Below are positions 637 through 24,554 of a stretch of DNA of 32,000 bases, piece by piece. Source of the stretch: Massilicoli timonensis (GTDB lineage: Bacteria; Bacillota_I; Bacilli_A; Erysipelotrichales; Erysipelotrichaceae); assembly GCF_900199515.1 (NCBI RefSeq), contig NZ_LT963434.1, positions 633,272 to 665,271 on the forward strand, read 5' to 3'. The number at the start of each line of letters is the position of its first letter. Within the stretch, counting starts at the first letter, position 1. Below the pieces are notes generated by a model that saw nothing but the letters and a program-made list of their open reading frames with translations, was not told the DNA's origin and made no database searches. The translations under genes and the position numbers were made by a program.

Positions 637-1686
637 TCATAGATGAATCACTGTTTTTTCTAAATCATACTTTCGTTTTAAGTAAACAAAGATCAGTCCG
701 CCTACCAGCATGACAAAATGGTAGGTGGAGAAACGCCATAAGATCATGACGCTGCTCGCATTTGCGCCGCCGCCGACGATCGGAATAAACAAACGGGTAA
801 AGACCAGCTCGGTTCCCCCGCTTGCCCCGGGAATCGGAATAAACGCATTTGCCATTGAAACAAAGCTGGAAATGGCTATGACGTCAATAAGCAGATCGAA
901 GCTGATCGCAATGCCAAGCGCCCTTGCCGTAACAAAGGGCAGTACATATAACACCGTCAAGCGCAGCACATTGATCGCGGCTGCCTTTAAGATCATCTTC
1001 TTTTCATGCTTCATCGCTTTGATCTGCAAGGTAAACGCCTCCAGCTGCAAGGTCCATGACTGCATCAGTTTCTCCGGATCCTTTACCAGCTTGATGCGGC
1101 ATAACAAACGAATCAAAAAACGAGACAGCTTTACATATAATTTCGGAAACAGCGCCAGTGTCCATAGTGCGCCGATCACACAGATATTGACAAAATAGCC
1201 GAATAAGATCAGCACGAAGAATACGCCCATCATATCTGTATAATGCGTAAAACGCAAGATGTAAAGAATCGTTACATAGATCATCAGCGTCGTTTGATAG
1301 ACGATAAAGTCCGTCCATAATAAGCTTGCGCCGTCACTGACCTTGATGCCCTGTTTTTTCAAAATATAAGCCTGCGCAAACTGTCCGCCGGTCGCGCTTG
1401 GCGTAATGCCGCTGAAAAAGGAACCGACAAACCCATTCAAGATCCCATCGATCAAACGATAGTCTTTTTTATAATGCTTGCCGAATATAGCGATGATCCA
1501 GCCTGCGATCACATTATAGACAATGCCCCAAAGCAAAATGATCAAAAGCCAGTACCATTTCATTCCGGCAATCAGATCCAATACTTCCCGATAATTGTCT
1601 TTCATCGCAAACCACAGCGCCAGCAGGGTCAAAGCGATGATGACCATAAAATTGATCGCGTATTTATTTTTTGCGTCCTTCATCAC
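637..1686 (-). CDS. Polytopic membrane protein, UPF0104/MprF-transmembrane-domain-like (flippase-like)
   Basis: 349 aa, about 8 hydrophobic helices, with a GxxPxPGxxGG(T)E-like motif (IPIPGASGGTELVF) typical of the lysyl-PG synthase TM/flippase-like family. Sits between two GT4 genes with 19-20 nt gaps. Confidence 0.7.
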   Translation of the reverse strand: MMKDAKNKYAINFMVIIALTLLALWFAMKDNYREVLDLIAGMKWYWLLIILLWGIVYNVIAGWIIAIFGKHYKKDYRLIDGILNGFVGSFFSGITPSATGGQFAQAYILKKQGIKVSDGASLLWTDFIVYQTTLMIYVTILYILRFTHYTDMMGVFFVLILFGYFVNICVIGALWTLALFPKLYVKLSRFLIRLLCRIKLVKDPEKLMQSWTLQLEAFTLQIKAMKHEKKMILKAAAINVLRLTVLYVLPFVTARALGIAISFDLLIDVIAISSFVSMANAFIPIPGASGGTELVFTRLFIPIVGGGANASSVMILWRFSTYHFVMLVGGLIFVYLKRKYDLEKTVIHL

Positions 1687-1705
1687 TCCACCTGCCTTTC
1701 CCTAT

Positions 1706-2710
1706 CTACTTTGCCAATACTTCCTCATATATTTTTTTCAAGCCTTGTCCGACTGCTTCAATGCTTCGCTCTTGCGCTGTCTGATGCCCTGCTTCGCTCA
1801 CATCCGGCAGCGTTTTTTCCACCACGCCCTGCACCAGTTCACAAAACTCATCGACATTTCTTCCCTTATAGCAGTTCACGGCAGACTTCATCCACGGCTC
1901 AAACACGCCGATGTCGCGTAAAACGATATTCTGTCTGGCTGCCAATCCCTCTAATACGACAATGCCCTCGGTTTCTTCTTTGCTTGGAAAAAAGAAGCAG
2001 TCGGCTCCCGCATAAGCGCCCTCGATCATATCGCCCTTGATATAACCGGGAAACAGCACATTGCTTGGATGATCGTGCGTGATCACCTGGCGGATATGCT
2101 TAGGAATGCTGTAAAGCTGCGTATAGCCAAACCAGATAAATTGATACTGCGGCAAGCGCTTCGCCACCTCCACAAAGTCCAATATGCCTTTACGATCAAA
2201 ATAAAGACCTACGGAAATCACGACCTTATCTTCCGGCGTCAAAGAAAAATAATTGCGAAAAGCACGAATCTTTCCCGCATCCGGTTCAAAGCGTTTGAGA
2301 TCGATCCCATTAGACAAAGCGGCAATCGGCAGCGTGATGCCATAGCCTTCCAACAGTTTCTTAGAATAAGGAGTCGGCGTAATGATATAATCCGCTTTGC
2401 TGTAAAGCGACACCAGATGCTTTTTGAACAACGGTGCGATCTGATTGGAAAGCACGAACGAGTTGCGAAAATCCTCTTCAGTGCTGTGCGCATGATAGAT
2501 GACCTTCTTGCCCAGCTTGCGCGCTTTTTTGATCATGCCATAGCTGCTTGGCCCAACGGTATTGATATGCAGAATATCATAATCTTCGCACGGCTCGATC
2601 GAAAAGTCAATTCCCGCGGAGGTAAGCGCCGCCATCTGGTGCTTCATCGCTCTGCCGATCCCGGAAGTCTGAATGATTTTTTCACCTTCAAAATATAAAT
2701 AGATCTTCAT
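1706..2710 (-). CDS. GT4-family glycosyltransferase (CpoA/BgsA-like glycolipid glycosyltransferase)
   Basis: 334 aa. N-terminus MKIYLY...SGIGRAMKHQ and C-terminal EETEGIVVLEGLA (the E-x7-E GT4 motif region). GGGAGG RBS upstream of the ATG at 2710. First gene of a three-gene operon. Confidence 0.85.
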   Translation of the reverse strand: MKIYLYFEGEKIIQTSGIGRAMKHQMAALTSAGIDFSIEPCEDYDILHINTVGPSSYGMIKKARKLGKKVIYHAHSTEEDFRNSFVLSNQIAPLFKKHLVSLYSKADYIITPTPYSKKLLEGYGITLPIAALSNGIDLKRFEPDAGKIRAFRNYFSLTPEDKVVISVGLYFDRKGILDFVEVAKRLPQYQFIWFGYTQLYSIPKHIRQVITHDHPSNVLFPGYIKGDMIEGAYAGADCFFFPSKEETEGIVVLEGLAARQNIVLRDIGVFEPWMKSAVNCYKGRNVDEFCELVQGVVEKTLPDVSEAGHQTAQERSIEAVGQGLKKIYEEVLAK

Positions 2711-2748
2711 AACTGCCTCCCAAGCACATAAACCTTTTTAACACAGGC

Positions 2749-2777
2749 ATTATATCATATTTCCTATCAATAGGAAA
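2749..2777 (-). promoter_or_regulatory. Candidate promoter of the glycolipid operon (extended -10 TGaTATAAT) overlapped by a perfect 8-2-8 palindrome
   Basis: Minus strand reads TTTCCTATtgATAGGAAAtatgaTATAATgcc. TATAAT is at 2754-2749 and is preceded by TGa. The palindrome TTTCCTAT/ATAGGAAA is at 2760-2777, where a -35 would lie. Confidence 0.4.
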
Positions 2778-2825
2778 TAAAAGCAGACGCGAGCGCCTAA
2801 CATTTCTGTAAGATAATCTGCTCGA

Positions 2826-2857
2826 TAAAAAAAACAAGACGGCATCGGCTATCTTGT
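2826..2857 (-). terminator. Rho-independent terminator of the helicase gene
   Basis: Minus strand ACAAGA-tagccgatgccg-TCTTGT followed by T8. The hairpin overlaps the TAG stop codon. Confidence 0.7.
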
Positions 2858-4555
2858 TCTTTGTTTTCGCATCGTTTTTTTCTTACCGCGCATCGTTTGA
2901 CGACGCTGCTTTCGATCGGGGAAAACGGCTTTCTTCTGCCCTTTTGAAGAGGCTTTTTTCTTTATGTGTTTTGTCTGCTTCTTGCTTTTTGCTAATAAAC
3001 GCACGGTAACGCTTTTACCGCCGATCTTAGCATTTTGCATGCGTTCTAACAGCATCTTAGCACTGTCGGCAGCGACTGCTACCAGCGTGTCGCTTGAGCG
3101 CACATCGATGCGTCCGATCATGTCAGTCCCACTTTCGCCGTATTCCGCAATCGCGCATACCAGATTGCCCGCCTGAATGCGGTCTTTTCTGCCGATGTCA
3201 AACTGAAGGGTCAGCGTTTCATAGTCATGCAGACGACGTTTTTGATTCAATGCCGCCGTTTCAATGATCTGCGGTTTGAAATTCATCGCGATAAGTGCGC
3301 TGATCAGATTTTCGATCGCAATGCCCTCCGCCATCAGCCGATTGGCGATCTCTATGCTCTCTGCGGTAATTTCCTCTCCACATGCCGTTTTCAAGCGTTC
3401 GATAAACGCTTCTTTTTCCTGCTTTAACAGCTGGGCAGAGCTAGGCAGGGCGCACTTGCGGATATTGGTTTTCGTAAAGTGCATGATATCACGCAGCGCT
3501 CGTTCTTGTCTTTTCCCGCTAATCAAAGTAATCGCCTTCCCGCTTTTCCCAGCCCGTCCGGTTCGGCCAATGCGATGAATGTAGTATTCATTATCCTGTG
3601 GAATATCATAGTTGCATACCAGTTCCACATCATCGACGTCAATGCCGCGCGCCGCCACATCGGTGGCGATCAGGATCGGATAAGCGCCGCTGCGGTACTG
3701 CTTCATCACATTGGTGCGATGCTCCTGCTTCATATCGCCGTGCAGCGATAACACATTCATGCCCTCTGCGCTCAATTCCACCGACAGTTCATCCACCTGT
3801 TTTTTCGTATTGCAGAAGATGATCGACAAACGCGGTGCATAATGACGAAGCAAGATCTTTAACGCCGTGCCTTTTTGTCCTCTCGGCACTTCATAGTAAA
3901 GCTGCTCCACAGTGTGAATGGTTTTCTGGGCAGATGCGATTTCGACCGTAATGGGATCTTTTTGAAACTGCCCTGCGATTGCCATGATCGCTTCCGGCAT
4001 CGTTGCGGAAAACAGGATCGTCTGATGCGCATGCGGAAAGGCATGCAGGATCTCTTCAATGTCTTCCTTAAATCCCATGTTCAGCATTTCATCTGCCTCA
4101 TCTAATACTACCATATCGCAATGATGCAATTTCAGCGTATGCCGGCGCAAATGATCCATTAGCCTTCCCGGTGTTCCCACCACGATCCCACATCCCCTTG
4201 CCAAAAGCCGGATCTGATGCTGGATCGGTTCACCGCCATAGATCGGAATGATCTTTACACCCTCTTTATATTTACAAAAACGCCGCAGTTCCATTGCAAC
4301 CTGAATGACCAATTCTCTGGTCGGGCATAAGATCAGTACCTGCGGATTCTTTTGTCCTGCCTGCACATGCTCCAATGCCGGGATCCCGAAAGCGGCCGTC
4401 TTGCCGGTACCGGTCTGTGATTTTCCTAAAACATCATGACCCGCTATAATAAGCGGGATCGCCTGCTGCTGGATCGCCGTAGCTTCCTGATATCCGATTT
4501 CCAGCACCGCCTGCTTGATTGGCGCGCTGATTGCTAATTCCTGAAATGTCGTCAT
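2849..4555 (-). CDS. DEAD-box ATP-dependent RNA helicase with DbpA-type C-terminal RNA-binding domain and a Lys/Arg-rich tail
   Basis: 568 aa. Q motif (FQEL...ATAIQ), motif I SQTGTGKT, motif II VLDEADEML, SAT, ARGIDV and HRIGRTGRAG. C-terminal FDIGRKDRIQAGNLVCAIAE... matches the DbpA/YxiN RRM-like domain. Tail is KKQTKHIKKKASSKGQKK... Confidence 0.95.
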   Translation of the reverse strand: MTTFQELAISAPIKQAVLEIGYQEATAIQQQAIPLIIAGHDVLGKSQTGTGKTAAFGIPALEHVQAGQKNPQVLILCPTRELVIQVAMELRRFCKYKEGVKIIPIYGGEPIQHQIRLLARGCGIVVGTPGRLMDHLRRHTLKLHHCDMVVLDEADEMLNMGFKEDIEEILHAFPHAHQTILFSATMPEAIMAIAGQFQKDPITVEIASAQKTIHTVEQLYYEVPRGQKGTALKILLRHYAPRLSIIFCNTKKQVDELSVELSAEGMNVLSLHGDMKQEHRTNVMKQYRSGAYPILIATDVAARGIDVDDVELVCNYDIPQDNEYYIHRIGRTGRAGKSGKAITLISGKRQERALRDIMHFTKTNIRKCALPSSAQLLKQEKEAFIERLKTACGEEITAESIEIANRLMAEGIAIENLISALIAMNFKPQIIETAALNQKRRLHDYETLTLQFDIGRKDRIQAGNLVCAIAEYGESGTDMIGRIDVRSSDTLVAVAADSAKMLLERMQNAKIGGKSVTVRLLAKSKKQTKHIKKKASSKGQKKAVFPDRKQRRQTMRGKKKTMRKQRTR

Positions 4556-4605
4556 AATTACCTGCTTTCTTGATTGGTTTCATCGCTTAAAAACATAACC
4601 GCCAT

Positions 4606-4634
4606 ATCATAGCATAGTCTGTGCGATTACACAA
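4606..4634 (-). promoter_or_regulatory. Candidate sigma-A promoter of the helicase gene
   Basis: Minus strand TTGTGT (4634-4629), 17-nt spacer, TATGAT (4611-4606), with TGc immediately upstream of the -10. Confidence 0.5.
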
Positions 4635-4655
4635 ATACTATTTTCCTATATATAA

Positions 4656-4678
4656 CAAAAAAGTGGATCGCTCCACTT
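4656..4678 (-). terminator. Rho-independent terminator of the surface-protein gene
   Basis: Minus strand AAGTGGA-gcga-TCCACTT followed by a T run, 24 nt after the stop at 4702. Confidence 0.7.
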
Positions 4679-4701
4679 CTTCGTTATCATTTAACATCTG
4701 T

Positions 4702-6810
4702 TTAGTTTAATTTCTTTTTCAGTGTCAATGCTCCTGCAAGTGCAAGGCTCAGCATCAGCAGTGCCGCATATGCTTCTGTCTGGCTCGCATCACCGGTATT
4801 TGGCGTACTTCCGTTCTCTGATGGTTTTGTATCATCCAAAATGATCGAAGGATTGACTACTTCTTCCTTATCCAGCGTCGTTTTCGCGCCGTCTGTATAA
4901 ACCAGTGCATAGGTCGAGAAACGATCGCTCTGGAAAGATACGGTGCCGTCCGCATTTTTCACGACCGGAATTCTGGTTACTTCATTTCCGTGGATCCGCA
5001 CGATGTAGAAGTCATAGTTTTCTTTTTGCAGCTGCTGTGGAATCGCTACGGTAAAAGTTACTTTTTCACTTAACTGATTCAGTTTGCCAAGCGCGCTTCC
5101 CTGTGCTTCTACCAAAATGCTCAGATCCAGATACTGTGCCACTTTGGCTTCTTTTGCTTCGGTTTTTGTGATCAGATCGCGTAATACCGCCTCTACTGCC
5201 TTGACATCGGACGCACTTACTTCTTCTGCTGTTTTCTTTTCCACGGTAAGTGTCGTTTCTATATCATCTCCGGCTTCCATCGCCGCCTTGATCGCAGCGA
5301 CAACCTTTTCATCATTGCCCTTTACACTTTCGATCTGCTCGATCGTGTCCTTCAGCGTTTCGGTAAATGCCGCGCTGTCTTTTTGTGATACGCCTGCTTC
5401 CACTTCATTGCTGTTTTGATCAACGGAAGGCAGATCGACAACCACTTCATTTTCCGCTTCCGCTACGCTGACCTCACAAGTTGCTTTTGCACTTCCCACA
5501 GTCGCACTGATGATCGCTGTGCCTGCTTTTTTCGCTGTTACGGTGCCATCCTGTGCAACGGTCGCAACTGATGGATCACTGCTGCTGTAAGAGATCGCTT
5601 CCGTAGCATAAGACGGAGTGACAGTCGCTTTGATCTGTGCGCTTTCTCCTACCTGAAGCGACAGGCTAAGCGGATCGATGCTAATCGTGTTTGCTTTCCA
5701 ATTTGTCGTTACATAGGCTGCGGACGCATCCACAAGTGAATGAGCATCAAGCGGATCGGCGCTTGGACGCTGTCCTAAATTTAATGTAACCGGCGCCGTT
5801 TCATTCAGCCCTTCGATCGCCCATAAACGATCAGCGTATAATGCTTTGAACTTGGCTACATCGTCGCTGCGATACTGGAATCCGGATACGATGTCTTGGT
5901 AAGCAGCACCTGCTTCCACGTTGATTTCAATTGCGTTCGCATAGCCATAATCAACATTGCCGAAATTTGTCGTCCACCAAGAACCGGCGCCGCCGGCTCC
6001 TTCATAGCTTTCTTCATCAGGATAATAAGAGCCCGCATAGATCACACCGCTCTTACCGCCATAAAGATGGTAAGTCAGTTTCCCTTCGATGATCGCACGA
6101 TATAAGCTGCTGAGCGTCTTGACCTCTCCGTCATATAAAGAAAGCGTTACGTTGCCCAGTTTGCCGTTTGTTCCTGCGATAAAATTGTTTAATACAGCGG
6201 CTTGCTCCTCACCGATGCGAACATCCATCTCACCGATATAAGTATAAGAGGTAGCGCCTCTTAGATCATTGATCTCAGCGCCGTCGATCGTCATCGTCAG
6301 TTTATCGATCGCATAATTTTTATAAGAATAGCCGTTTTCTTCTTTGATCACAGCTTGGCCAAACGCTGCGTTCTGATTATCAGTACCCCATAATCCAAGC
6401 GTGATCTTACCGCCGTTGATATCTACTTCGGCATTCGTCACTTTGCTGGTTTTGCAGCTTTTCTCGTTTTTCATCTTGTTTCCGGCAACGATGCCTCTTA
6501 CCGTACCGCCATTCATCGTAATCTTGGTGCTAGGCAGATTGACAGCACTCTCAGTTGAATCACTGCCGCCGTAAACGATGTCATCGGCATCGATCAGCTG
6601 TTTTCCGCCATCCCATGTGATAAGCGCTGATTTCCCCGCTTCATCACTTTCTTCAATGGTAATCGGTGTACCGTTGGCAAAAAATTCATTTCCTGAGTAA
6701 GTCGGAGCAGAACCGCTGTTGCCTTCCGCATAAACCGTTGTCGGTACAACGCTCATGCCAAAAAGCAGTGCAGCTGATGCCAACACACCAAAAACACTTG
6801 TTTTTTTCAT
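4702..6810 (-). CDS. Sortase-anchored cell-surface protein (signal peptide, beta-helix-like Gly-rich repeats, Big_2 Ig-like domain, acidic Ala/Glu/Lys-rich stalk, C-terminal sorting signal TPNTG)
   Basis: I place the start at MKKTSVFGVLASAALLFGMSVVPTTVYA|EGN (ATG 6810) because AAGGAGAGGAGA lies 6 nt upstream. The ORF-track ATG at 6855 has no RBS and would lie about 12 nt from the predicted TSS. Big_2-like segment is ISIDPLSLSLQVGESAQIKATVTP...SSDPSVATVAQDGTVTAKKAGTAIISATV. The C-terminus is TPNTG, a hydrophobic helix, then KKKLN. Confidence 0.8.
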   Translation of the reverse strand: MKKTSVFGVLASAALLFGMSVVPTTVYAEGNSGSAPTYSGNEFFANGTPITIEESDEAGKSALITWDGGKQLIDADDIVYGGSDSTESAVNLPSTKITMNGGTVRGIVAGNKMKNEKSCKTSKVTNAEVDINGGKITLGLWGTDNQNAAFGQAVIKEENGYSYKNYAIDKLTMTIDGAEINDLRGATSYTYIGEMDVRIGEEQAAVLNNFIAGTNGKLGNVTLSLYDGEVKTLSSLYRAIIEGKLTYHLYGGKSGVIYAGSYYPDEESYEGAGGAGSWWTTNFGNVDYGYANAIEINVEAGAAYQDIVSGFQYRSDDVAKFKALYADRLWAIEGLNETAPVTLNLGQRPSADPLDAHSLVDASAAYVTTNWKANTISIDPLSLSLQVGESAQIKATVTPSYATEAISYSSSDPSVATVAQDGTVTAKKAGTAIISATVGSAKATCEVSVAEAENEVVVDLPSVDQNSNEVEAGVSQKDSAAFTETLKDTIEQIESVKGNDEKVVAAIKAAMEAGDDIETTLTVEKKTAEEVSASDVKAVEAVLRDLITKTEAKEAKVAQYLDLSILVEAQGSALGKLNQLSEKVTFTVAIPQQLQKENYDFYIVRIHGNEVTRIPVVKNADGTVSFQSDRFSTYALVYTDGAKTTLDKEEVVNPSIILDDTKPSENGSTPNTGDASQTEAYAALLMLSLALAGALTLKKKLN

Positions 6811-6873
6811 TTCGTTTCTCCTCTCCTTGTATTCTGTTGAATCCGGACATATCATTCTGATATATTCAGCTAT

Positions 6874-6904
6874 ATTATACCCCCCCCCCAGTCATATTTG
6901 TCAA
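6874..6904 (-). promoter_or_regulatory. Consensus sigma-A promoter with a G10 homopolymer in the spacer (predicted phase-variable)
   Basis: Minus strand TTGACA (6904-6899), aatatgact, GGGGGGGGGG (6889-6880), TATAAT (6879-6874). The spacer is 19 bp as sequenced. Confidence 0.65.
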
Positions 6905-7071
6905 TAGCAATCGTTACCTTTTTCTCGTATTATGATCATTATTTTTACATTTTCTGTAACCGCTTTACCAATCCTTGTGCACATATACCACTTTCTCATC
7001 TTTTCATCATTTTTATTTTTGCCTGCCACGCTTCGACAAACTTCTGCTTTCACACTTGCTATACTGTAAGC

Positions 7072-7176
7072 GGCAAGAGGAACTTGCCATACGGAAAATC
7101 CCCTAATCTATCCCAATTCCGTATATCATTCTATCCCCTAAAACAAGGAAAAAGCCGGTCTTGCTGCCGGTTTTTT
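7072..7176 (+). ncRNA. C-rich sibling small RNA, copy A (putative; ends approximate)
   Basis: Extended -10 TGcTATACT (7057-7065). SL1 is GGCAAG-aggaa-CTTGCC (7072-7088). SL2 is ATACGGAA/TTCCGTAT (7089-7124) with a 20-nt loop carrying CCCC and CCC. Invariant 17-mer ATATCATTCTATCCCCT is at 7123-7139. Terminator is CCGG-tcttgctg-CCGG plus T6 (7155-7176). No + strand gene lies downstream. Confidence 0.55.
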
Positions 7177-7305
7177 CCTATCTTTGACAAAATTCACGCA
7201 AATTCTCCTTCATCATCATACAATCTAACACAATTATCTCGATAATCACATCATTTACCAAAAATGAAACATCTTTTTAACATTGCCATTCGCTATACTA
7301 TAGCC

Positions 7306-7431
7306 AACAGGAGATGAGAACTCCTGTTGAAGTAATCCCCTTAAATAAATTTTCTCATAACTTTTCTCCCTTAATTTTGTATTGATAATTTGTTAATGAA
7401 AAAATACCGTTTCCCCAAGACGGTATTTTTT
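7306..7431 (+). ncRNA. C-rich sibling small RNA, copy B (divergent paralog; putative)
   Basis: -10 box TATACTATAG (7294-7303). Perfect 9-bp SL1 CAACAGGAG-atgagaa-CTCCTGTTG (7305-7329). AATCCCCTTA and TTCTCCCTTA motifs are present. Terminator is ATACCGT-ttccccaag-ACGGTAT plus T6 (7404-7431), with CCCC in the loop. Same order of elements as A, C and D, but the middle is diverged. Confidence 0.4.
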
Positions 7432-7711
7432 CTGTATAAGTGCATAACAATCAACTATTTTGATGTTTATTGCAACTGAAAAAAAAGTAAAAAAATCATC
7501 TTTTGTTCGTTTATTGTTAGTTACAGCCATCTATCCCTATTACATTCTCATCTTAGAACAAAACTCATATTTTCGCATGACAAAGTACTGTCATTTTCCC
7601 AACTTTCATTGTTTGTTCACTTGCTCATCCATTGAGAAGATCAACAAGACTTTGTACGTTTATGAAAAACAAGCAAAAGAAAATAAGAACGATCCGGTGA
7701 ACGGCAGATTT

Positions 7712-18934: not shown

Positions 18935-19008
18935 GGTTCCGTAGCCAAGTGGTAAGGCAATAGACTGCAACTCTGTGATCATCGGTTCAAATCCGATCGG
19001 AACCTCCA
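18935..19008 (+). tRNA. tRNA-Cys (anticodon GCA), CCA encoded
   Basis: Hand-folded cloverleaf. Acceptor GGTTCCG/CGGAACC. Anticodon stem ATAGA/TCTGT with loop CTGCAAC. T arm ATCGG-TTCAAAT-CCGAT. Discriminator T then CCA. Confidence 0.9.
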
Positions 19009-19013
19009 TTATT

Positions 19014-19103
19014 GGGGACATGGCGGAATAGGCAGACGCAACGGACTTAAAATCCGTTGGGAATTATACTCCCGTGCGGGTTCAAGTCCCGCTGTCCCCA
19101 CCA
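19014..19103 (+). tRNA. tRNA-Leu (anticodon TAA), long variable arm, CCA encoded
   Basis: Acceptor GGGGACA/TGTCCCC. Anticodon stem ACGGA/TCCGT with loop CTTAAAA. Variable arm GGGA...TCCC. T arm GCGGG-TTCAAGT-CCCGC. Discriminator A then CCA. Confidence 0.9.
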
Positions 19104-19154: not shown

Positions 19155-19763
19155 TTAACAATGCTGATCCGCTGTTTCTTCCTGCATGATCCGCTTCATC
19201 TTTTGACGATACTGCCGCAGACAATCCGGCGCATAATAATAGCCGCAGCCTTGTTCATCAATCTGTTCAGGGTCAAAAGGAATCATACCGAAGCCTTTTG
19301 ACAAGATTCGTGCGCCATCCTCGCTTACCGCTTCCGCAAATACCTCCTGCATATAAGCGCCCTGTCTCTCACAGCCGTCCAGCCACATCACAAAGCCCTT
19401 AGCCAGTTCTTTCATCACCTGACCGCCGCGATAACGCGCATCACAGGCAATCGTATAAAGATATAAAATATTGCCCCCTTTGCGCAGACCGCAGTTTTTT
19501 AACTCACGATAATGCCCGCCATGCAAATAGCGATCCCGCTGTTCCTGATTCAAAAAGATCGCATTGAGATAAGCGACCACTTCTCCTTTTTCCGCATCAC
19601 AAAGCAAAAACAAACCTTCCTTGCTTTCCGCATACAGCTCATAAAAGTATTCCGGCGGCAAAGCATTTCCCTGCTCGATCGGGAATACTACGCTATCCAG
19701 TCGCAGCATCGCTTCAAACAGCGTATCATCTATTGCTTCTCCACGATATAAACAAAACCGCAT
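19155..19763 (-). CDS. GNAT-family acetyltransferase (start uncertain)
   Basis: Motif A region is ACDARYRGGQVMKELAKG. The first ATG in frame is 19763 (MRFCLYRGE), with only a weak AAAGAAA upstream. The ORF is open to a TTG at 19835, and a strong AAAGGAGA at 19817-19824 precedes an in-frame ATT. Confidence 0.7.
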   Translation of the reverse strand: MRFCLYRGEAIDDTLFEAMLRLDSVVFPIEQGNALPPEYFYELYAESKEGLFLLCDAEKGEVVAYLNAIFLNQEQRDRYLHGGHYRELKNCGLRKGGNILYLYTIACDARYRGGQVMKELAKGFVMWLDGCERQGAYMQEVFAEAVSEDGARILSKGFGMIPFDPEQIDEQGCGYYYAPDCLRQYRQKMKRIMQEETADQHC

Positions 19764-20017
19764 ATTTCTTTGGCATATCGTAATTGACGCATCTAAACAG
19801 TCATTCCTTACAATATGCTTTCTCCTTTCTTCCAATCAATTGCCACTGTGATTGGATCCAGCTGCGTTGTCGTTCCTTTTTCATTCGTCATGAATGTTTC
19901 CGTTTACTTGGTCTTCGGTCAATCAGCAAGCACACCTATTTTTAATTCCTACTAAATTCACATGATTTACCACAATCATACGATATTTTTGCGATTGCTT
20001 TCTTCTATACTATTACC

Positions 20018-20132
20018 AGACAAGGAAACTTGTCGTGGATAACGATTCCCCTATCGTATATCCATATCATTCTATCCCCTTATAAATCATAATTTTTTAG
20101 TGGAAAAGCATCCGTTCCCCACGGATGTTTTT
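20018..20132 (+). ncRNA. C-rich sibling small RNA, copy C (putative; ends approximate)
   Basis: -10 box TATACTATTA (20006-20015). SL1 is GACAAG-gaaa-CTTGTC (20019-20034). SL2 is GGATAACGAT-tcccct-ATCGTaTATCC (20037-20063). Invariant 17-mer is at 20064-20080. Terminator is GCATCCG-ttcccca-CGGATGT plus T5 (20108-20132). Confidence 0.55.
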
Positions 20133-20222
20133 CTTTGTCTGAAACAGCTGCCTTTTTTGCTTTCACATCATTTACCATAAAGGATTGATATTTTCGCGAA
20201 AGCAAATTCGTATAGTATAGAC

Positions 20223-20348
20223 AGGCAAAGGAAAACCTTTGTCAAATGGAAAACTATGAGATCCCCTCTTAGTAGTTTCCCATATCATTCTATCCCCTTA
20301 TAATTCATACTTTTATGGAAAGAACGCCATCCCCCTCGGCGTTCTTTT
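20223..20348 (+). ncRNA. C-rich sibling small RNA, copy D (putative; ends approximate)
   Basis: -10 box TATAGTATAG (20211-20220). SL1 is GGCAAAGG-aaaa-CCTTTGTC with a G-U pair possible only on the + strand (20224-20243). SL2 is GGAAAaCTA...TAGTTTCC (20248-20280) with loop ...GATCCCCTC... Invariant 17-mer is at 20282-20298. Terminator is GAACGCC-atccccctc-GGCGTTC plus T4 (20322-20348). Confidence 0.55.
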
Positions 20349-20421
20349 CCATTTTCATACACAAAAGTATAGGAAAAGAAACCCTATATGTGATTCCTTC
20401 CCCCTGCAAGCAGCGCTTGTT

Positions 20422-21177
20422 TTATACGATCTTCTCTAAGAAATAAGGCAGCTGCTTCTGCCACCAAGGCCAGTCATGATTGACATCATAGCCCCAGAAA
20501 TCGATCCACGCATGAATCCCCTTTTCTTCCAGAATGCGTTTCATCTCTTTAGAGGAAGCGATCATTTCATCCTCCCATGCCCCCTGTCCACAGCATAATA
20601 CGATGTAAGAGCGATTATACAGATCGACATACGGATGATCATTTGCCAGATTGCGCAAGTACACTTCCGGTGCATTGTTATAAATGATATCATCCATATA
20701 ATCACCGAAAAACATACGGCTGTTAAAGACCCCGCTCAGTGAAATACAGCCATCAAACAAATCCGGTCGTCTGAAAAAGAAATTCGCCGCATGCATGCCA
20801 CCCATACTGCATCCCGTCGTAAGGATACCGCTTGCGACCTTACCGCCGTTGCTCAGCGTATTGATCTCATAGATGCGCGGCACCAGTTCTTCTACCACGT
20901 AGTGATACCACGCCTCATGACGCAGTGCGCGGCCGCGGGGATCGCCATATTGATCAGACCATGTTTCCCGGTCGATGCTGTCTACACAAAAATACTGCAA
21001 GCGCCCCTCTTCCAGCAAATAATCCGTTACTTCTACCATGCGGAAGTTTTCCCAGTCATAGAAACGTCCATCCTGAGCCGGGAACACCAAACACGGCTTG
21101 CCGGCATGTCCATACACCTTAAACTCCATTTCTCTTTGTAAGAAATGACTGTATTCTTTATAATACGCAATCTTCAT
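20422..21177 (-). CDS. Alpha/beta-hydrolase esterase (putative-esterase / tributyrin-esterase-like family)
   Basis: 251 aa with nucleophile elbow GCSMGG. The N-terminal pattern Y.S..L.REMEFKVYGH.GKP.LVFP.Q.GRFYD is typical of this esterase family. The start lies 20 nt inside the end of the upstream ATP-grasp gene. Confidence 0.8.
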   Translation of the reverse strand: MKIAYYKEYSHFLQREMEFKVYGHAGKPCLVFPAQDGRFYDWENFRMVEVTDYLLEEGRLQYFCVDSIDRETWSDQYGDPRGRALRHEAWYHYVVEELVPRIYEINTLSNGGKVASGILTTGCSMGGMHAANFFFRRPDLFDGCISLSGVFNSRMFFGDYMDDIIYNNAPEVYLRNLANDHPYVDLYNRSYIVLCCGQGAWEDEMIASSKEMKRILEEKGIHAWIDFWGYDVNHDWPWWQKQLPYFLEKIV

Positions 21178-22372: not shown

Positions 22373-22519
22373 AACAACACCCCTCTTTTTTCTTTGAATA
22401 TCTTTATTGTATCATAAATTGTAAGCGTATTTCATGAAAACTTTATGAAACTTTTTGTTTCTATTTTTCCCATCATCATAATTATGCGGCTATAACTGGT
22501 AAACCAGTTTCCGGTAATT

Positions 22520-22592
22520 AAAAAATGACAGGAAGCAGACCTGTCTTTTGAGATAAAAAAAGCTATATTTGATCACCAAACCAAATATAGCT
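22520..22592 (-). terminator. Two tandem hairpin terminators downstream of the P-loop protein gene
   Basis: Hairpin 1 is AGCTATATTTG-10 nt-CAAATATAGCT (22561-22592), followed on the minus strand by T7. Hairpin 2 is GACAGG-7 nt-CCTGTC (22527-22545), flanked by a T/A run on both strands and so bidirectional. Confidence 0.65.
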
Positions 22593-22694
22593 TACTCTTG
22601 TTTAATCACCCCTGTCCGACAGATACCATAATCAGTTCGATTTTAGCTTTACCTATTTTACGGACACCTCGCCATCGACAGTATTTTTGTTTTC

Positions 22695-24374
22695 TTAATC
22701 TGCCTCAATAAAGCGCAACAGTTCTTCTGCGGCTTTCTTTAAGCCGTCCGTATTGTCATCGCGAAAACCCAGATGCGTAAAGATTTCCCCGATATAAACA
22801 TGATTTTGCTTTAATACCGCAAATACTTCATCGATCAATGGATCACAGATTTCCTGCTTCTGCATCGGCCCAAACGGATTGGCAAAGTAAGTCTTAGAGA
22901 TACCGATCTCCTGCGTCGTTCCTAACGCCATGCGTTTGCCTTCCTTGTAAATCGCCTTCGCTTCTTCCAGATCTTCGATTTCCCGCATGCCGATCTGATC
23001 GTCATAATTATTGGCATAGCAGAATAAGTCGATGCGATGATTTTGGGCAACAACATCATATGGTGCGGCCGGCGTAATGACACGGGCATTGGCAGAATCC
23101 GGATTCATGAAGATCGAACGATCCATATCGCGGTATGGGGTTCCTTTATCCAGATCATCCAGTCGGATAAAGGCACCGATCTCGGTTCCCTGTCCATAAG
23201 GGATCCCATCTTCCACATGAATGCTTCCCATGTCATCAAATACGACTTCGATCTTTCTGATCTTCTCTTTCCCTAACGCGCGCAATGCTTCAATGGACTC
23301 TGATTTCCCCGCTCCGGAATCCCCCATCAGCATGATGCCTTTCTTTAAGCCGCTGCGCAAAGTGATATTGACAAATGCACCGTGAATCGGCAGCCAGCCC
23401 TTTTGCATCATCGCCAGATTATGCAATGTCAAAGACATCTTCTTGATATAGCCGAAATAATCGATCAGCGGTCCATAGGAAACACAGCCTACCCAGATAT
23501 CGTGCTGCACATCATGATAAAACGTCGTTTGATTTTTTCCGTCCTCATTGCCAAACAAGCAGATCAAGTCCGGCTTTTTGCCGCATTCCTCAACCGTTGC
23601 TAATTCAAATAAGTTCGCCAAGGAAATACCGCTGGCAATATAATCGCGATGCAGATAAATAAAAGCAAGCAGACTGCCGATCTTGCATGGATAACACATC
23701 CATTCCTCTTGATTGCCGCTGAATTCATGGATCGGGTTGGTATCACGCTCCGTAAACATGCCGGTACGTTTATTGGATTTTGGATAGATCAATAACGGTG
23801 TACGCAGTGTAACCGTATCAATAAAAGGAATTTCATGAAGCGCCGCATACAGTTCCGGCAGCTTCGGTGCAATTTTTTTCAAGCTGACACAGGCATTGGT
23901 GCCCGCCTGCAGCTGACGATATACGCGGGTGCTTCTGCCTTGGATCTTTTCCTCCAGCAAACGATACAAAGCACGAATCTGATTGCTGAAAGTGGTATCG
24001 GCAGCCATGACCATAGCAGATGTCGCATTTTCCATGACCGCAAATCGCTGATGATGCTTCCAGAAATTATACAGTTCTTCAATAAACTGCGCCAGCTTGC
24101 CTTTGTCATTCAAATAGTCGCTTTCAATTTCTTCACATTTCAAAACGATCAGCATTCTTAATAACTTACAGATCTCAAAGCACGCTTCCCGCGGTGAACG
24201 ATGATTTAACGCATAGCGATACAGCGTTTCATCAAAATCACGCAAGTAGTCGATATAAACATGAATAAAATTATGAAAAACCGATGAGTTCATCAGTTCT
24301 GCGTTGCTTTTCGGAATATCGCCTGTATAGTTGATGATCGCCAAATCATTTTTCAAGTACAACTTCTCTTTCAT
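22695..24374 (-). CDS. Uncharacterised protein with a C-terminal HprK/PEPCK-like P-loop kinase domain
   Basis: 559 aa. LPIHGAFVNITLRSGLKKGIMLMGDSGAGKSESIEAL parallels the HPr kinase/phosphorylase core (HG..V...G.GVLI.G.SG.GKSE). The N-terminal roughly 320 aa have no motif I recognise. GAAAGGAG RBS, a TATAAT at 24423-24418 and its own terminators indicate a monocistronic unit. Confidence 0.6.
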   Translation of the reverse strand: MKEKLYLKNDLAIINYTGDIPKSNAELMNSSVFHNFIHVYIDYLRDFDETLYRYALNHRSPREACFEICKLLRMLIVLKCEEIESDYLNDKGKLAQFIEELYNFWKHHQRFAVMENATSAMVMAADTTFSNQIRALYRLLEEKIQGRSTRVYRQLQAGTNACVSLKKIAPKLPELYAALHEIPFIDTVTLRTPLLIYPKSNKRTGMFTERDTNPIHEFSGNQEEWMCYPCKIGSLLAFIYLHRDYIASGISLANLFELATVEECGKKPDLICLFGNEDGKNQTTFYHDVQHDIWVGCVSYGPLIDYFGYIKKMSLTLHNLAMMQKGWLPIHGAFVNITLRSGLKKGIMLMGDSGAGKSESIEALRALGKEKIRKIEVVFDDMGSIHVEDGIPYGQGTEIGAFIRLDDLDKGTPYRDMDRSIFMNPDSANARVITPAAPYDVVAQNHRIDLFCYANNYDDQIGMREIEDLEEAKAIYKEGKRMALGTTQEIGISKTYFANPFGPMQKQEICDPLIDEVFAVLKQNHVYIGEIFTHLGFRDDNTDGLKKAAEELLRFIEAD

Positions 24375-24554
24375 AAAAACTCCTTTCCCATGTTGCCATG
24401 TATGCTCATTCTATCCTATTATACTAACAAAGACTGAAAAATACCATAAAAGATTAGCAGGCAGTATGCGATCAGCACGGCTTTCTATCAGGAAAAGCAG
24501 AGAAAAAACATCACATGTCTTTTTTCATCACTTGTTTATCAACAGCTTTCCGAT

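Follow-up and report, generated by a model that had tools for sequence, protein, structure and literature searches.

Organisation of the C/D locus

Four copies (A to D) of a short structured element were found in a 32,000-nt stretch of the Massilicoli timonensis genome (contig NZ_LT963434.1, positions 633,272 to 665,271 of the forward strand), hereafter referred to as the window. Copies C and D, which are the subject of this analysis, represent two head-to-tail units on the + strand and are located between a GNAT-like gene and an esterase gene, both of which are encoded on the minus strand. An original prediction, made from the letters of the window alone, had placed the two copies here on the + strand, and the -10 boxes and hairpins that it claimed are present in the sequence. 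The same prediction gave the gap between the two genes a length of 586 bp, which is correct if the GNAT open reading frame (ORF) begins with the TTG at 19835; public assemblies place the start at the ATG at 19763, which gives a gap of 658 bp.

In both units, a -10 box is followed by a first stem-loop (SL1), which begins 7 nt past this box, a second stem-loop (SL2), a single-stranded linker and a terminator. The linker opens with the 15-mer ATCATTCTATCCCCT, hereafter referred to as the seed, and a G+C-rich hairpin followed by a T run closes each unit. No co-oriented ORF was found after C/D or after A/B, indicating that these elements are stand-alone units. The features of the locus are as follows, in window coordinates.

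19155-19763 or 19835, minus strand: GNAT-like gene
19958-19975, + strand: copy C upstream box 1 (TTCACATGATTTACCACA), also found 5' of copies B and D and of type-2 copies elsewhere
19979-19996, + strand: copy C degenerate tandem boxes TACGATA-TTT-TTGCGAT, located where TTCGACA is found in copy-A orthologs
20006-20011, + strand: copy C -10 box TATACT (TATACT/TATAGT is conserved across family copies)
20019-20134, + strand: predicted copy C RNA, approximately 115 nt, with a 5' end inferred from the -10 box
20019-20034, + strand: copy C SL1, GACAAG/CTTGTC
20035-20065, + strand: copy C SL2, loop UCCCCU at 20047-20052
20066-20102, + strand: copy C single-stranded linker, seed AUCAUUCUAUCCCCU (DNA ATCATTCTATCCCCT) at 20066-20080
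20103-20134, + strand: copy C terminator, loop UCCCC at 20116-20120
20162-20179, + strand: copy D upstream box 1 (TTCACATCATTTACCATA), located with promoters aligned on the -10 box
20211-20216, + strand: copy D -10 box TATAGT
20224-20350, + strand: predicted copy D RNA, approximately 125 nt
20224-20243, + strand: copy D SL1, GGCAAAGG/CCTTTGTC, with one G-U pair
20246-20283, + strand: copy D SL2, loop UCCCC at 20262-20266
20284-20316, + strand: copy D linker, seed (same 15-mer as in C) at 20284-20298
20317-20350, + strand: copy D terminator, loop AUCCCCCUC
20422-21177, minus strand: esterase gene

Each of the four copies in the window folds as had been described, with z-scores of -3.4 to -6.8 relative to dinucleotide shuffles. 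Copy C has a minimum free energy (MFE) of -38.5 kcal/mol (z = -6.7) and copy D an MFE of -38.6 kcal/mol (z = -6.8). In both copies, UCCCC(U) is found in the SL2 loop and UCCCC in the terminator loop; the full sets of C-rich motifs are UCCCCU (SL2 loop), AUCCCCU (linker) and UCCCC (terminator loop) in copy C, and UCCCC, AUCCCCU and AUCCCCCUC at the respective positions in copy D. Among 25 copies of the family described below, runs of three or more C residues were nearly always unpaired in the minimum-energy folds. The window contains exactly three instances of the seed 15-mer (copies A, C and D), and an extended block that C and D had been said to share was confirmed as 35 nt with 94% identity (20062-20096 and 20280-20314).

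Not all details of the predicted anatomy held for all copies. The element order proposed as common to the four copies holds for A, C and D, but SL2 is absent from copy B, in which UCCCCU is simply unpaired. Similarly, SL2 stems had been called unrelated in sequence, which does not apply to copies C and D, whose SL2 stems are related to each other (GUGGAUAAC and AUGGAAAAC), even though three SL2 stem versions do exist in the family as a whole.

The small RNA family across Erysipelotrichaceae

A search for related sequences was performed by scanning one genome per species with the pattern TCCCC-N(9-39)-ATCATTCTATCCCCT; the species that carries the window was not among the genomes returned. The pattern was found in 29 places, 20 of which represented unrelated sequence (several plainly coding) and nine of which showed the full copy-A anatomy. 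All nine were from Erysipelotrichales, or from records that group there, and included Copranaerobaculum intestinale and Longicatena caecimuris. A covariance model (R1) built from copy A and these nine sequences, without B, C and D, identified all three withheld copies in the window, all on the + strand and with E-values of 5e-8 to 9e-6; copy D (20213-20349) scored 41.5 bits, copy B 32.6 bits and copy C (20012-20134) 31.9 bits. Copy A itself scored 64.3 bits, but was part of the seed alignment of the model. With filters off, the next-best match of R1 in the window reached only 8.9 bits, arguing against a fifth copy. As R1 finds D, B and C unseen, copies A to D are therefore homologous, and the window contains only these four.

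Homologs of the DEAD-box helicase encoded beside copy A led to three further copy-A orthologs (loci L043 to L045), one of which carries a variant seed, UCUAUUCUAUCCCCU. The nearest relative has a copy-A ortholog beside a helicase gene whose product is 74% identical, as well as an ortholog of copy B, and copy A is syntenic across genera in which the helicase proteins are only 59-74% identical. Overall, the family was found in at least 12 other Erysipelotrichales loci, often with several copies per locus, and consists of two types. Type 2, represented by R1 matches at other loci, has an SL1 of AGCAAG/CTTGCT, an SL2 of GUAUGA...UCAUAC with the loop UUCCCC, and the linker CUUUCUCCCUUUCA. One locus (L033) carries five copies in 4 kb, i.e., one type-1 copy and four type-2 copies. 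The copies in the window that lie outside the C/D locus represent these two types as follows.

7032-7038, + strand: copy A upstream box TTCGACA, which ends 22 nt before the -10 box and is the reverse complement of the 0A box TGTCGAA
7060-7178, + strand: copy A (type 1), with -10 box at 7060-7065, SL1 at 7072-7088, SL2 at 7089-7124, seed at 7125-7139 and terminator at 7147-7178
7246-7432, + strand: copy B (degenerate type 2), with box 1 at 7246-7262, -10 box at 7294-7299, SL1 at 7305-7329 and a terminator that extends to 7432
7376-7397, + strand: conserved block UUUGUAUUGAUAAUUUGUUAAU of copy B, which also has the unpaired motifs AAUCCCCUU and UUUUCUCCCUU

The copy-B ortholog of the nearest relative (L043, approximately 3030-3180, minus strand) has lost both C-rich motifs. 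This ortholog has kept SL1, with a compensatory change, as well as the terminator and an identical 22-nt block, UUUGUAUUGAUAAUUUGUUAAU, and copy B may thus act through a different region.

No Rfam 15 family reached its gathering score anywhere in the window, except for two tRNAs, and a cmscan search of 19800-20450 and 6950-7500 against all 4227 families with permissive filters yielded no match to copies A to D at E <= 10. In addition, a literature search did not find a paper on small RNAs of Erysipelotrichaceae. Copies A to D belong to a previously uncatalogued, multi-copy small RNA (sRNA) family across Erysipelotrichaceae. The sequence evidence indicates that C and D are real sRNA genes, and that the family, while new, is of a well-known kind, i.e., sibling sRNAs with C-rich anti-Shine-Dalgarno motifs.

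Conservation of the structure was evaluated with three alignments. MAFFT misaligned SL1 and the terminators, and a hand alignment with N padding and a model-made alignment were therefore used. In the hand alignment of copy-A orthologs (n = 10, made before the three helicase-linked orthologs were found), 100% of 275 cells pair and two-sided changes are seen for 15 of 28 base pairs, a level attained by 0 of 500 shuffles; slid controls paired in 32-50% of cells. For SL1 and SL2 of all types (n = 21), 97.8% of 321 cells pair and 13 of 20 pairs are two-sided (0/500 shuffles; slid controls 28-46%). The model-made alignment (n = 21) gave 97.5% of 522 cells paired, with two-sided changes in 24 of 28 pairs (0/500 shuffles; slid controls 45-51%). 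Unguided MAFFT alignment with RNAalifold recovered SL2 alone, with two covarying pairs.

Several separate compensatory changes can be read directly from the stems, as the original prediction had proposed from the differing SL1 stems in the window. SL1 exists as GGCAAG/CUUGCC, AGCAAG/CUUGCU, GACAAG/CUUGUC, GACAGC/GCUGUC and AACAGG/CCUGUU, and the copy-B ortholog of the nearest relative shows a G-C to A-U switch of its own. SL2 has one stem version each in type 1, in type 2 and in C/D; within type 1, U-A to G-C and A-U to U-A switches were found. The covariation in these stems, which the original prediction had read as selection on RNA structure, was strengthened, rather than removed, by the addition of more homologs, and this reading is supported.

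By comparison with copy A, copies C and D have a narrow distribution. The pattern scan of genomes gave copy-A types only, and the only exact matches to a C/D-specific 19-mer were in two metagenome contigs of the species that carries the window. Contigs with a homolog of the AI-2E transporter did not reveal a C/D copy by synteny in the nearest relative (83% identity), nor was one found beside the AI-2E homolog (58% identity) in a record named [Clostridium] innocuum. Within the species, one strain has no single-nucleotide polymorphism (SNP) in 19955-20421, while 18 were found in 1.7 kb of coding sequence that adjoin this region, and across 10 other assemblies the intergenic region contains only two variable positions, both upstream of the sRNA genes. 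Plasmid and phage collections yielded no match and base composition gave no island signal around C/D. The C/D pair looks like a recent lineage-specific duplication.

Two tRNA genes (18935-19100, + strand; 66.7 and 62.9 bits in Rfam), one of which has a long variable arm, are separated by 55 bp from where the GNAT gene ends and bound the segment that carries C/D. Near this segment, some strains (L001, L004 and L006, at 1-1400) carry a relaxase gene and small ORFs beside an ATP-grasp gene, where the window (22373-24374) and other strains carry a gene for a 559-aa protein instead. This neighbouring segment is strain-variable and probably mobile.

Transcribed strand and promoter boxes

The -10 box (TATACT/TATAGT) lies 5-7 nt 5' of SL1 in every copy and a T run is found past the last hairpin. 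Among stem cells, at least 23 are G-U, which would be C-A on the other strand, as compared to four A-C cells, and the folding z-score was better on the sense strand for all 25 copies (means of -5.9 for sense and -3.1 for antisense). Raw folding energy was uninformative in this regard, as the + strand was the more stable one in only 14 of 25 copies. On the reverse strand, R1 gave terminator-sized matches only. In L045, both flanking genes are on the strand of the sRNA; in L032, the helicase gene follows downstream in the same orientation; the distance between sRNA and helicase gene is 2.5-5 kb in L044 and L045; and type-2 copies are found in unrelated gene contexts. These observations support that the elements are transcribed from the + strand. 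This had been favoured previously with the -10 boxes, T-run lengths (6/6/5/4 as compared to 5/6/4/3) and three G-U pairs (in the A and C terminators and D SL1); the counts and the pairs proved correct on reading, and the -10 boxes, G-U cells, folding z-scores and neighbourhoods elsewhere all agree.

Two explanations in which the minus strand is functional need to be weighed here. On the minus strand, C and D lie upstream of the GNAT start, and copy A lies upstream of the gene for the Big_2 surface protein and, in several genomes, of the helicase gene; C/D could be structured cis-regulatory 5' leaders of the GNAT gene, and A/B such leaders of the surface-protein or helicase gene. The terminators form hairpins that are close to symmetric, and minus strands also beat shuffles in folding (mean z of -3.1). 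However, contexts L045 and L032 speak against the minus-strand leaders of GNAT and surface-protein genes that the original prediction had named as a finding that would refute it, and so do L044 and the type-2 copies. In addition, the Big_2 gene has a strong promoter of its own between copy A and its start codon, the 23 or more G-U cells would turn into C-A mismatches, and nothing past the terminator is conserved as a minus-strand promoter, while the + strand boxes are at fixed distances. We consider leaders of this type very unlikely. The other explanation is based on the fact that the reverse complement sets AGGGGA motifs in the same loops and linker, such that a G-rich minus-strand transcript with GGA/GGGGA in its loops could act as a protein sponge of the CsrB/RsmZ type. 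This arrangement resembles the GGA-in-loop design of RNAs that sequester CsrA, but we know of no CsrA-sponge RNA in Firmicutes. The G-U asymmetry, the z-scores, the T runs and the conserved + strand promoter, along with the lack of a conserved minus-strand promoter, leave a sponge hardly credible. A small ORF on the minus strand was also considered, as AGGGGATAGAATG resembles a Shine-Dalgarno sequence followed by ATG, and was rejected since no peptide is conserved; the frames, read by eye, run for 8 codons in A, 21 in C, 37 in D and five in copy-A orthologs.

Given transcription from the + strand, the promoters were compared with the -10 box as the anchor of the alignment. TTCGACA, with one mismatch or none, is found in all 13 copy-A orthologs, 12 of which have 22 nt between the end of this box and the -10 box; besides the window, the loci with this box are L012, L015, L019, L025, L032-L034, L036, L038 and L043-L045. 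In L044, a good box is found at 12 nt from the -10 box and only a 5/7 match at 22 nt. L034 carries boxes at both 22 and 12 nt (TTCGTCA-N3-TTCGACA), the latter being one helical turn closer to the -10 box, and a weaker repeat is often found approximately 11 bp downstream of TTCGACA in copy-A orthologs. The spoIIG promoter, which is activated by Spo0A, has a 22-bp spacer. The 0A box is TGTCGAA, and Spo0A sites often consist of boxes that are 3 bp apart (PMC3485338, PMC2731898). Many Erysipelotrichaceae species carry spo0A and form spores (PMC8340488). The sequence and position of the box suggest, as a hypothesis for copy A only, that this copy may be controlled by Spo0A; C and D match the 0A box at only 4-6 of 7 positions. 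The tandem boxes of copy C match TTCGACA at 5/7 only and would thus represent a weak site at best.

Copies B, C and D share a different upstream region with type-2 copies. A box with the consensus cCACATAaTTTaCCAtA (box 1) is found 48 to 31 nt upstream of the start of the -10 box in 11 of 11 type-2, B, C and D copies, and at this distance B, C, D and all type-2 copies read CCACATAATTT(A/T)CCA(T/C)A. These copies also have a weak box at the position of TTCGACA, and share GAtAac at 8 nt upstream of the -10 box. The sequence CACAT(C/G)ATTTACCA, located 5' of B, C and D (7246-7262, 19958-19975 and 20162-20179), fits the consensus CCACATAATTTWCCA that all type-2 copies in other genera have in their upstream region. 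Since C and D have a type-1 seed along with upstream boxes of the type-2/B style, they combine the seed of one type with the promoter architecture of the other. None of these promoters was called in a sigma-70 scan, which is explained by the absence of a standard -35 element. Judging from these boxes, the C and D promoters probably place the same seed under a second signal.

Proposed function and relation to known sRNAs

The layout of copies C and D is most readily compared to that of LhrC1-5 in Listeria monocytogenes (which are grouped with Rli22 and Rli33-1). These are multi-copy sibling sRNAs of approximately 110 nt, partly in tandem, with redundant CU-rich UCCC motifs in a hairpin loop, a single-stranded segment ahead of the terminator and the loop of this terminator, i.e., the same layout as in C/D. 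In LhrC, the UCCC motifs at all three of these sites bind lapB in its Shine-Dalgarno region, and mRNAs that encode surface or envelope proteins are likewise paired by such motifs at the Shine-Dalgarno region (PMC4132741). Transcription of LhrC depends on LisRK, and the targets that it represses are of the lapB, oppA or tcsA type. In contrast to LhrC, copies C and D have an additional 5' hairpin (SL1), are found in a different lineage (Erysipelotrichales) and have other promoter elements. LhrC has an entry in Rfam, and its model gave no match at E <= 10 on either window locus in the cmscan search.

The CiaR-dependent csRNAs of streptococci are also encoded by several related copies per genome. 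Between their stem-loops, csRNAs have an unpaired region that complements the Shine-Dalgarno site as well as the AUG, and their promoters combine a strong -10 box with repeat boxes approximately one helical turn upstream that replace a normal -35 element (PMC3091779). The C/D linker, which is unpaired in the folds, likewise complements both a Shine-Dalgarno-like part and an AUG. The family described here differs in having three hairpins rather than two and does not show sequence similarity to csRNAs; the CiaR repeat NTTAAG-N5-TTTAAG, which in csRNA promoters lies 10 nt upstream of the -10 box, was not found when both strands of the window were scanned with a regular expression. RsaE/RoxS of Bacillales (RF01820) shares C-rich unpaired motifs, a terminator, a length of approximately 100 nt and the stretch UUUCUCCC, which is common to type-2 copies. 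The best RsaE score in the family was obtained for a type-2 copy of L033 (24.5 bits, as compared to a gathering score of 79), mostly from UUUCUCCC and the terminator, and A to D gave no match to RsaE at E <= 10. RsaE is single-copy as a rule, and control by ResD/SrrA and Rex, as for RsaE, is not indicated here. By analogy, the family would work like LhrC, csRNAs and RsaE, but it belongs to none of them.

As C and D are stand-alone units with conserved unpaired C-rich motifs as in LhrC and csRNAs, they are therefore proposed to encode trans-acting sRNAs that would occlude ribosome-binding sites. We regard it as likely that C and D are extra, independently transcribed + strand genes of a trans-acting sibling sRNA family that uses anti-Shine-Dalgarno pairing. 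Each gene would yield a + strand RNA of approximately 115-125 nt, reaching from at or next to SL1 to the intrinsic terminator, which would display three unpaired C-rich motifs, in the SL2 loop, the linker and the terminator loop. In target mRNAs, these motifs are predicted to pair with the G-rich Shine-Dalgarno region, which would keep ribosomes from binding and may often destabilise the mRNA, and several copies with one seed could add dosage or extra regulatory inputs. The sequence AGGGGAUAGAAUGAU, to which the seed AUCAUUCUAUCCCCU is exactly complementary, can be read as a Shine-Dalgarno site followed by a spacer and an AUG. The analysis demonstrates the genes and their strand, the conservation of their structure, and the family with its distribution, whereas expression, targets, regulator and mode of action are all inferred here from the DNA.

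A number of observations weigh against this proposal. Transcription start sites were inferred from -10 boxes, the terminators have short T runs, and their hairpins are close to symmetric owing to A tracts on the 5' side. The covariation counts come from structure-guided alignments and many of the changes are shared by descent, which inflates the number of cells, and most SL2 changes split subtypes and thus represent few independent events. Synteny and sequence searches found no ortholog of the C/D pair outside this species. In AGGGGAUAGAAUGAU, only 4 nt separate the Shine-Dalgarno-like part from the AUG, a short distance for a real ribosome-binding site. A local scan of 26 translation start regions gave weak leads only; both 11-nt sites that it identified are weak and one extra match with three mismatches equals chance (1.2 expected). 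The helicase mRNA encoded beside copy-A orthologs shows no conserved complementarity, and was rejected as a conserved copy-A target for this reason.

Two further alternatives were weighed. The presence of multiple copies per genome in a tandem arrangement, and of a C/D pair that is confined to one species and adjoins two tRNA genes and a strain-variable region, could fit DNA-level repeats without an RNA function of their own, for example miniature mobile elements, REP-like elements or their remnants. In drifting repeats, one would expect the opposite of what was found, i.e., a seed that is identical in A, C and D and stems that differ and yet pair. Copy A is also syntenic across genera (helicases 59-74% identical), terminal inverted repeats and target duplications are absent, plasmid and phage collections contain no match, and each copy carries a promoter and a terminator; repeats of this kind are therefore given very little credence. 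The elements could also encode + strand sRNAs that act mainly in another way, through protein binding, as an RNA sponge or through stabilisation or activation of targets. Copy B and its ortholog in the nearest relative lost the C-rich motifs and kept a different 22-nt block and the hairpins; parts other than the C-rich seeds can therefore be under selection. On the other hand, A, C and D are most conserved in the unpaired C-rich motifs and the 15-17 nt seed, and such motifs bind Shine-Dalgarno regions in LhrC, RsaE and relatives (PMC4132741). Another main mode of action thus appears unlikely, and anti-Shine-Dalgarno pairing by trans-acting siblings is retained as the preferred explanation for C and D.

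The two 11-nt sites, which represent possible targets but are near chance expectation, are located in the 5' UTR (untranslated region) of the Big_2 gene (approximately 6857-6868, minus strand; complementary to the C/D linker) and at 24405-24419 on the minus strand, complementary to the seed, at the predicted 5' end of the mRNA for the 559-aa P-loop protein (gene 22695-24374). The Big_2 gene, which is on the minus strand, has its real start at ATG 6810, followed by the signal peptide MKKTSVFGVLASAALLF. Its promoter (6873-6903, minus strand) consists of TTGACA, 9 nt plus G10, and TATAAT, such that a poly-G tract (6884-6893) lies in the spacer between the -35 and -10 boxes. This tract is G8, G9, G10 or G11 across metagenome assemblies of the same species, and three of five contigs break at or near it. 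The promoter is a candidate for phase variation with a spacer of 17-20 nt, and homopolymer sequencing errors could also produce such differences.

In L045, the type-1 sRNA (532-667, + strand) is located directly upstream of an FtsX/ABC transporter operon (755-5830), which includes an OmpR-type response regulator and a histidine kinase and has a BceAB-RS-like layout. A link of this sRNA to envelope stress is possible in view of these genes.

A more far-reaching reading would be a network of sibling sRNAs tied to the decision between growth and sporulation in gut Erysipelotrichaceae. Spo0A would drive an ancestral copy A through its perfect 0A box, placed 22 nt from the -10 box as in the spoIIG promoter. 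C and D would have been made by this species by combining the same seed with the promoter architecture of the second sRNA type, and a target set that possibly includes the candidate phase-variable Big_2 surface protein encoded beside copy A would respond to two signals. This scheme is speculative and we put it forward with considerable doubt.

The class of C-rich, anti-Shine-Dalgarno, multi-copy sRNAs is well known in Firmicutes, and the family described here would extend this principle rather than change it. Erysipelotrichaceae are abundant in the human gut, have been tied to both health and disease and are poorly characterised. With an RNA model that works across genera, a 15-nt seed for target prediction on a genome-wide scale and a set of promoter boxes that hint at the signals behind it, the family offers an entry to post-transcriptional control in these bacteria, and the window, with one seed under two promoter types, may represent a natural experiment in the rewiring of paralogs.

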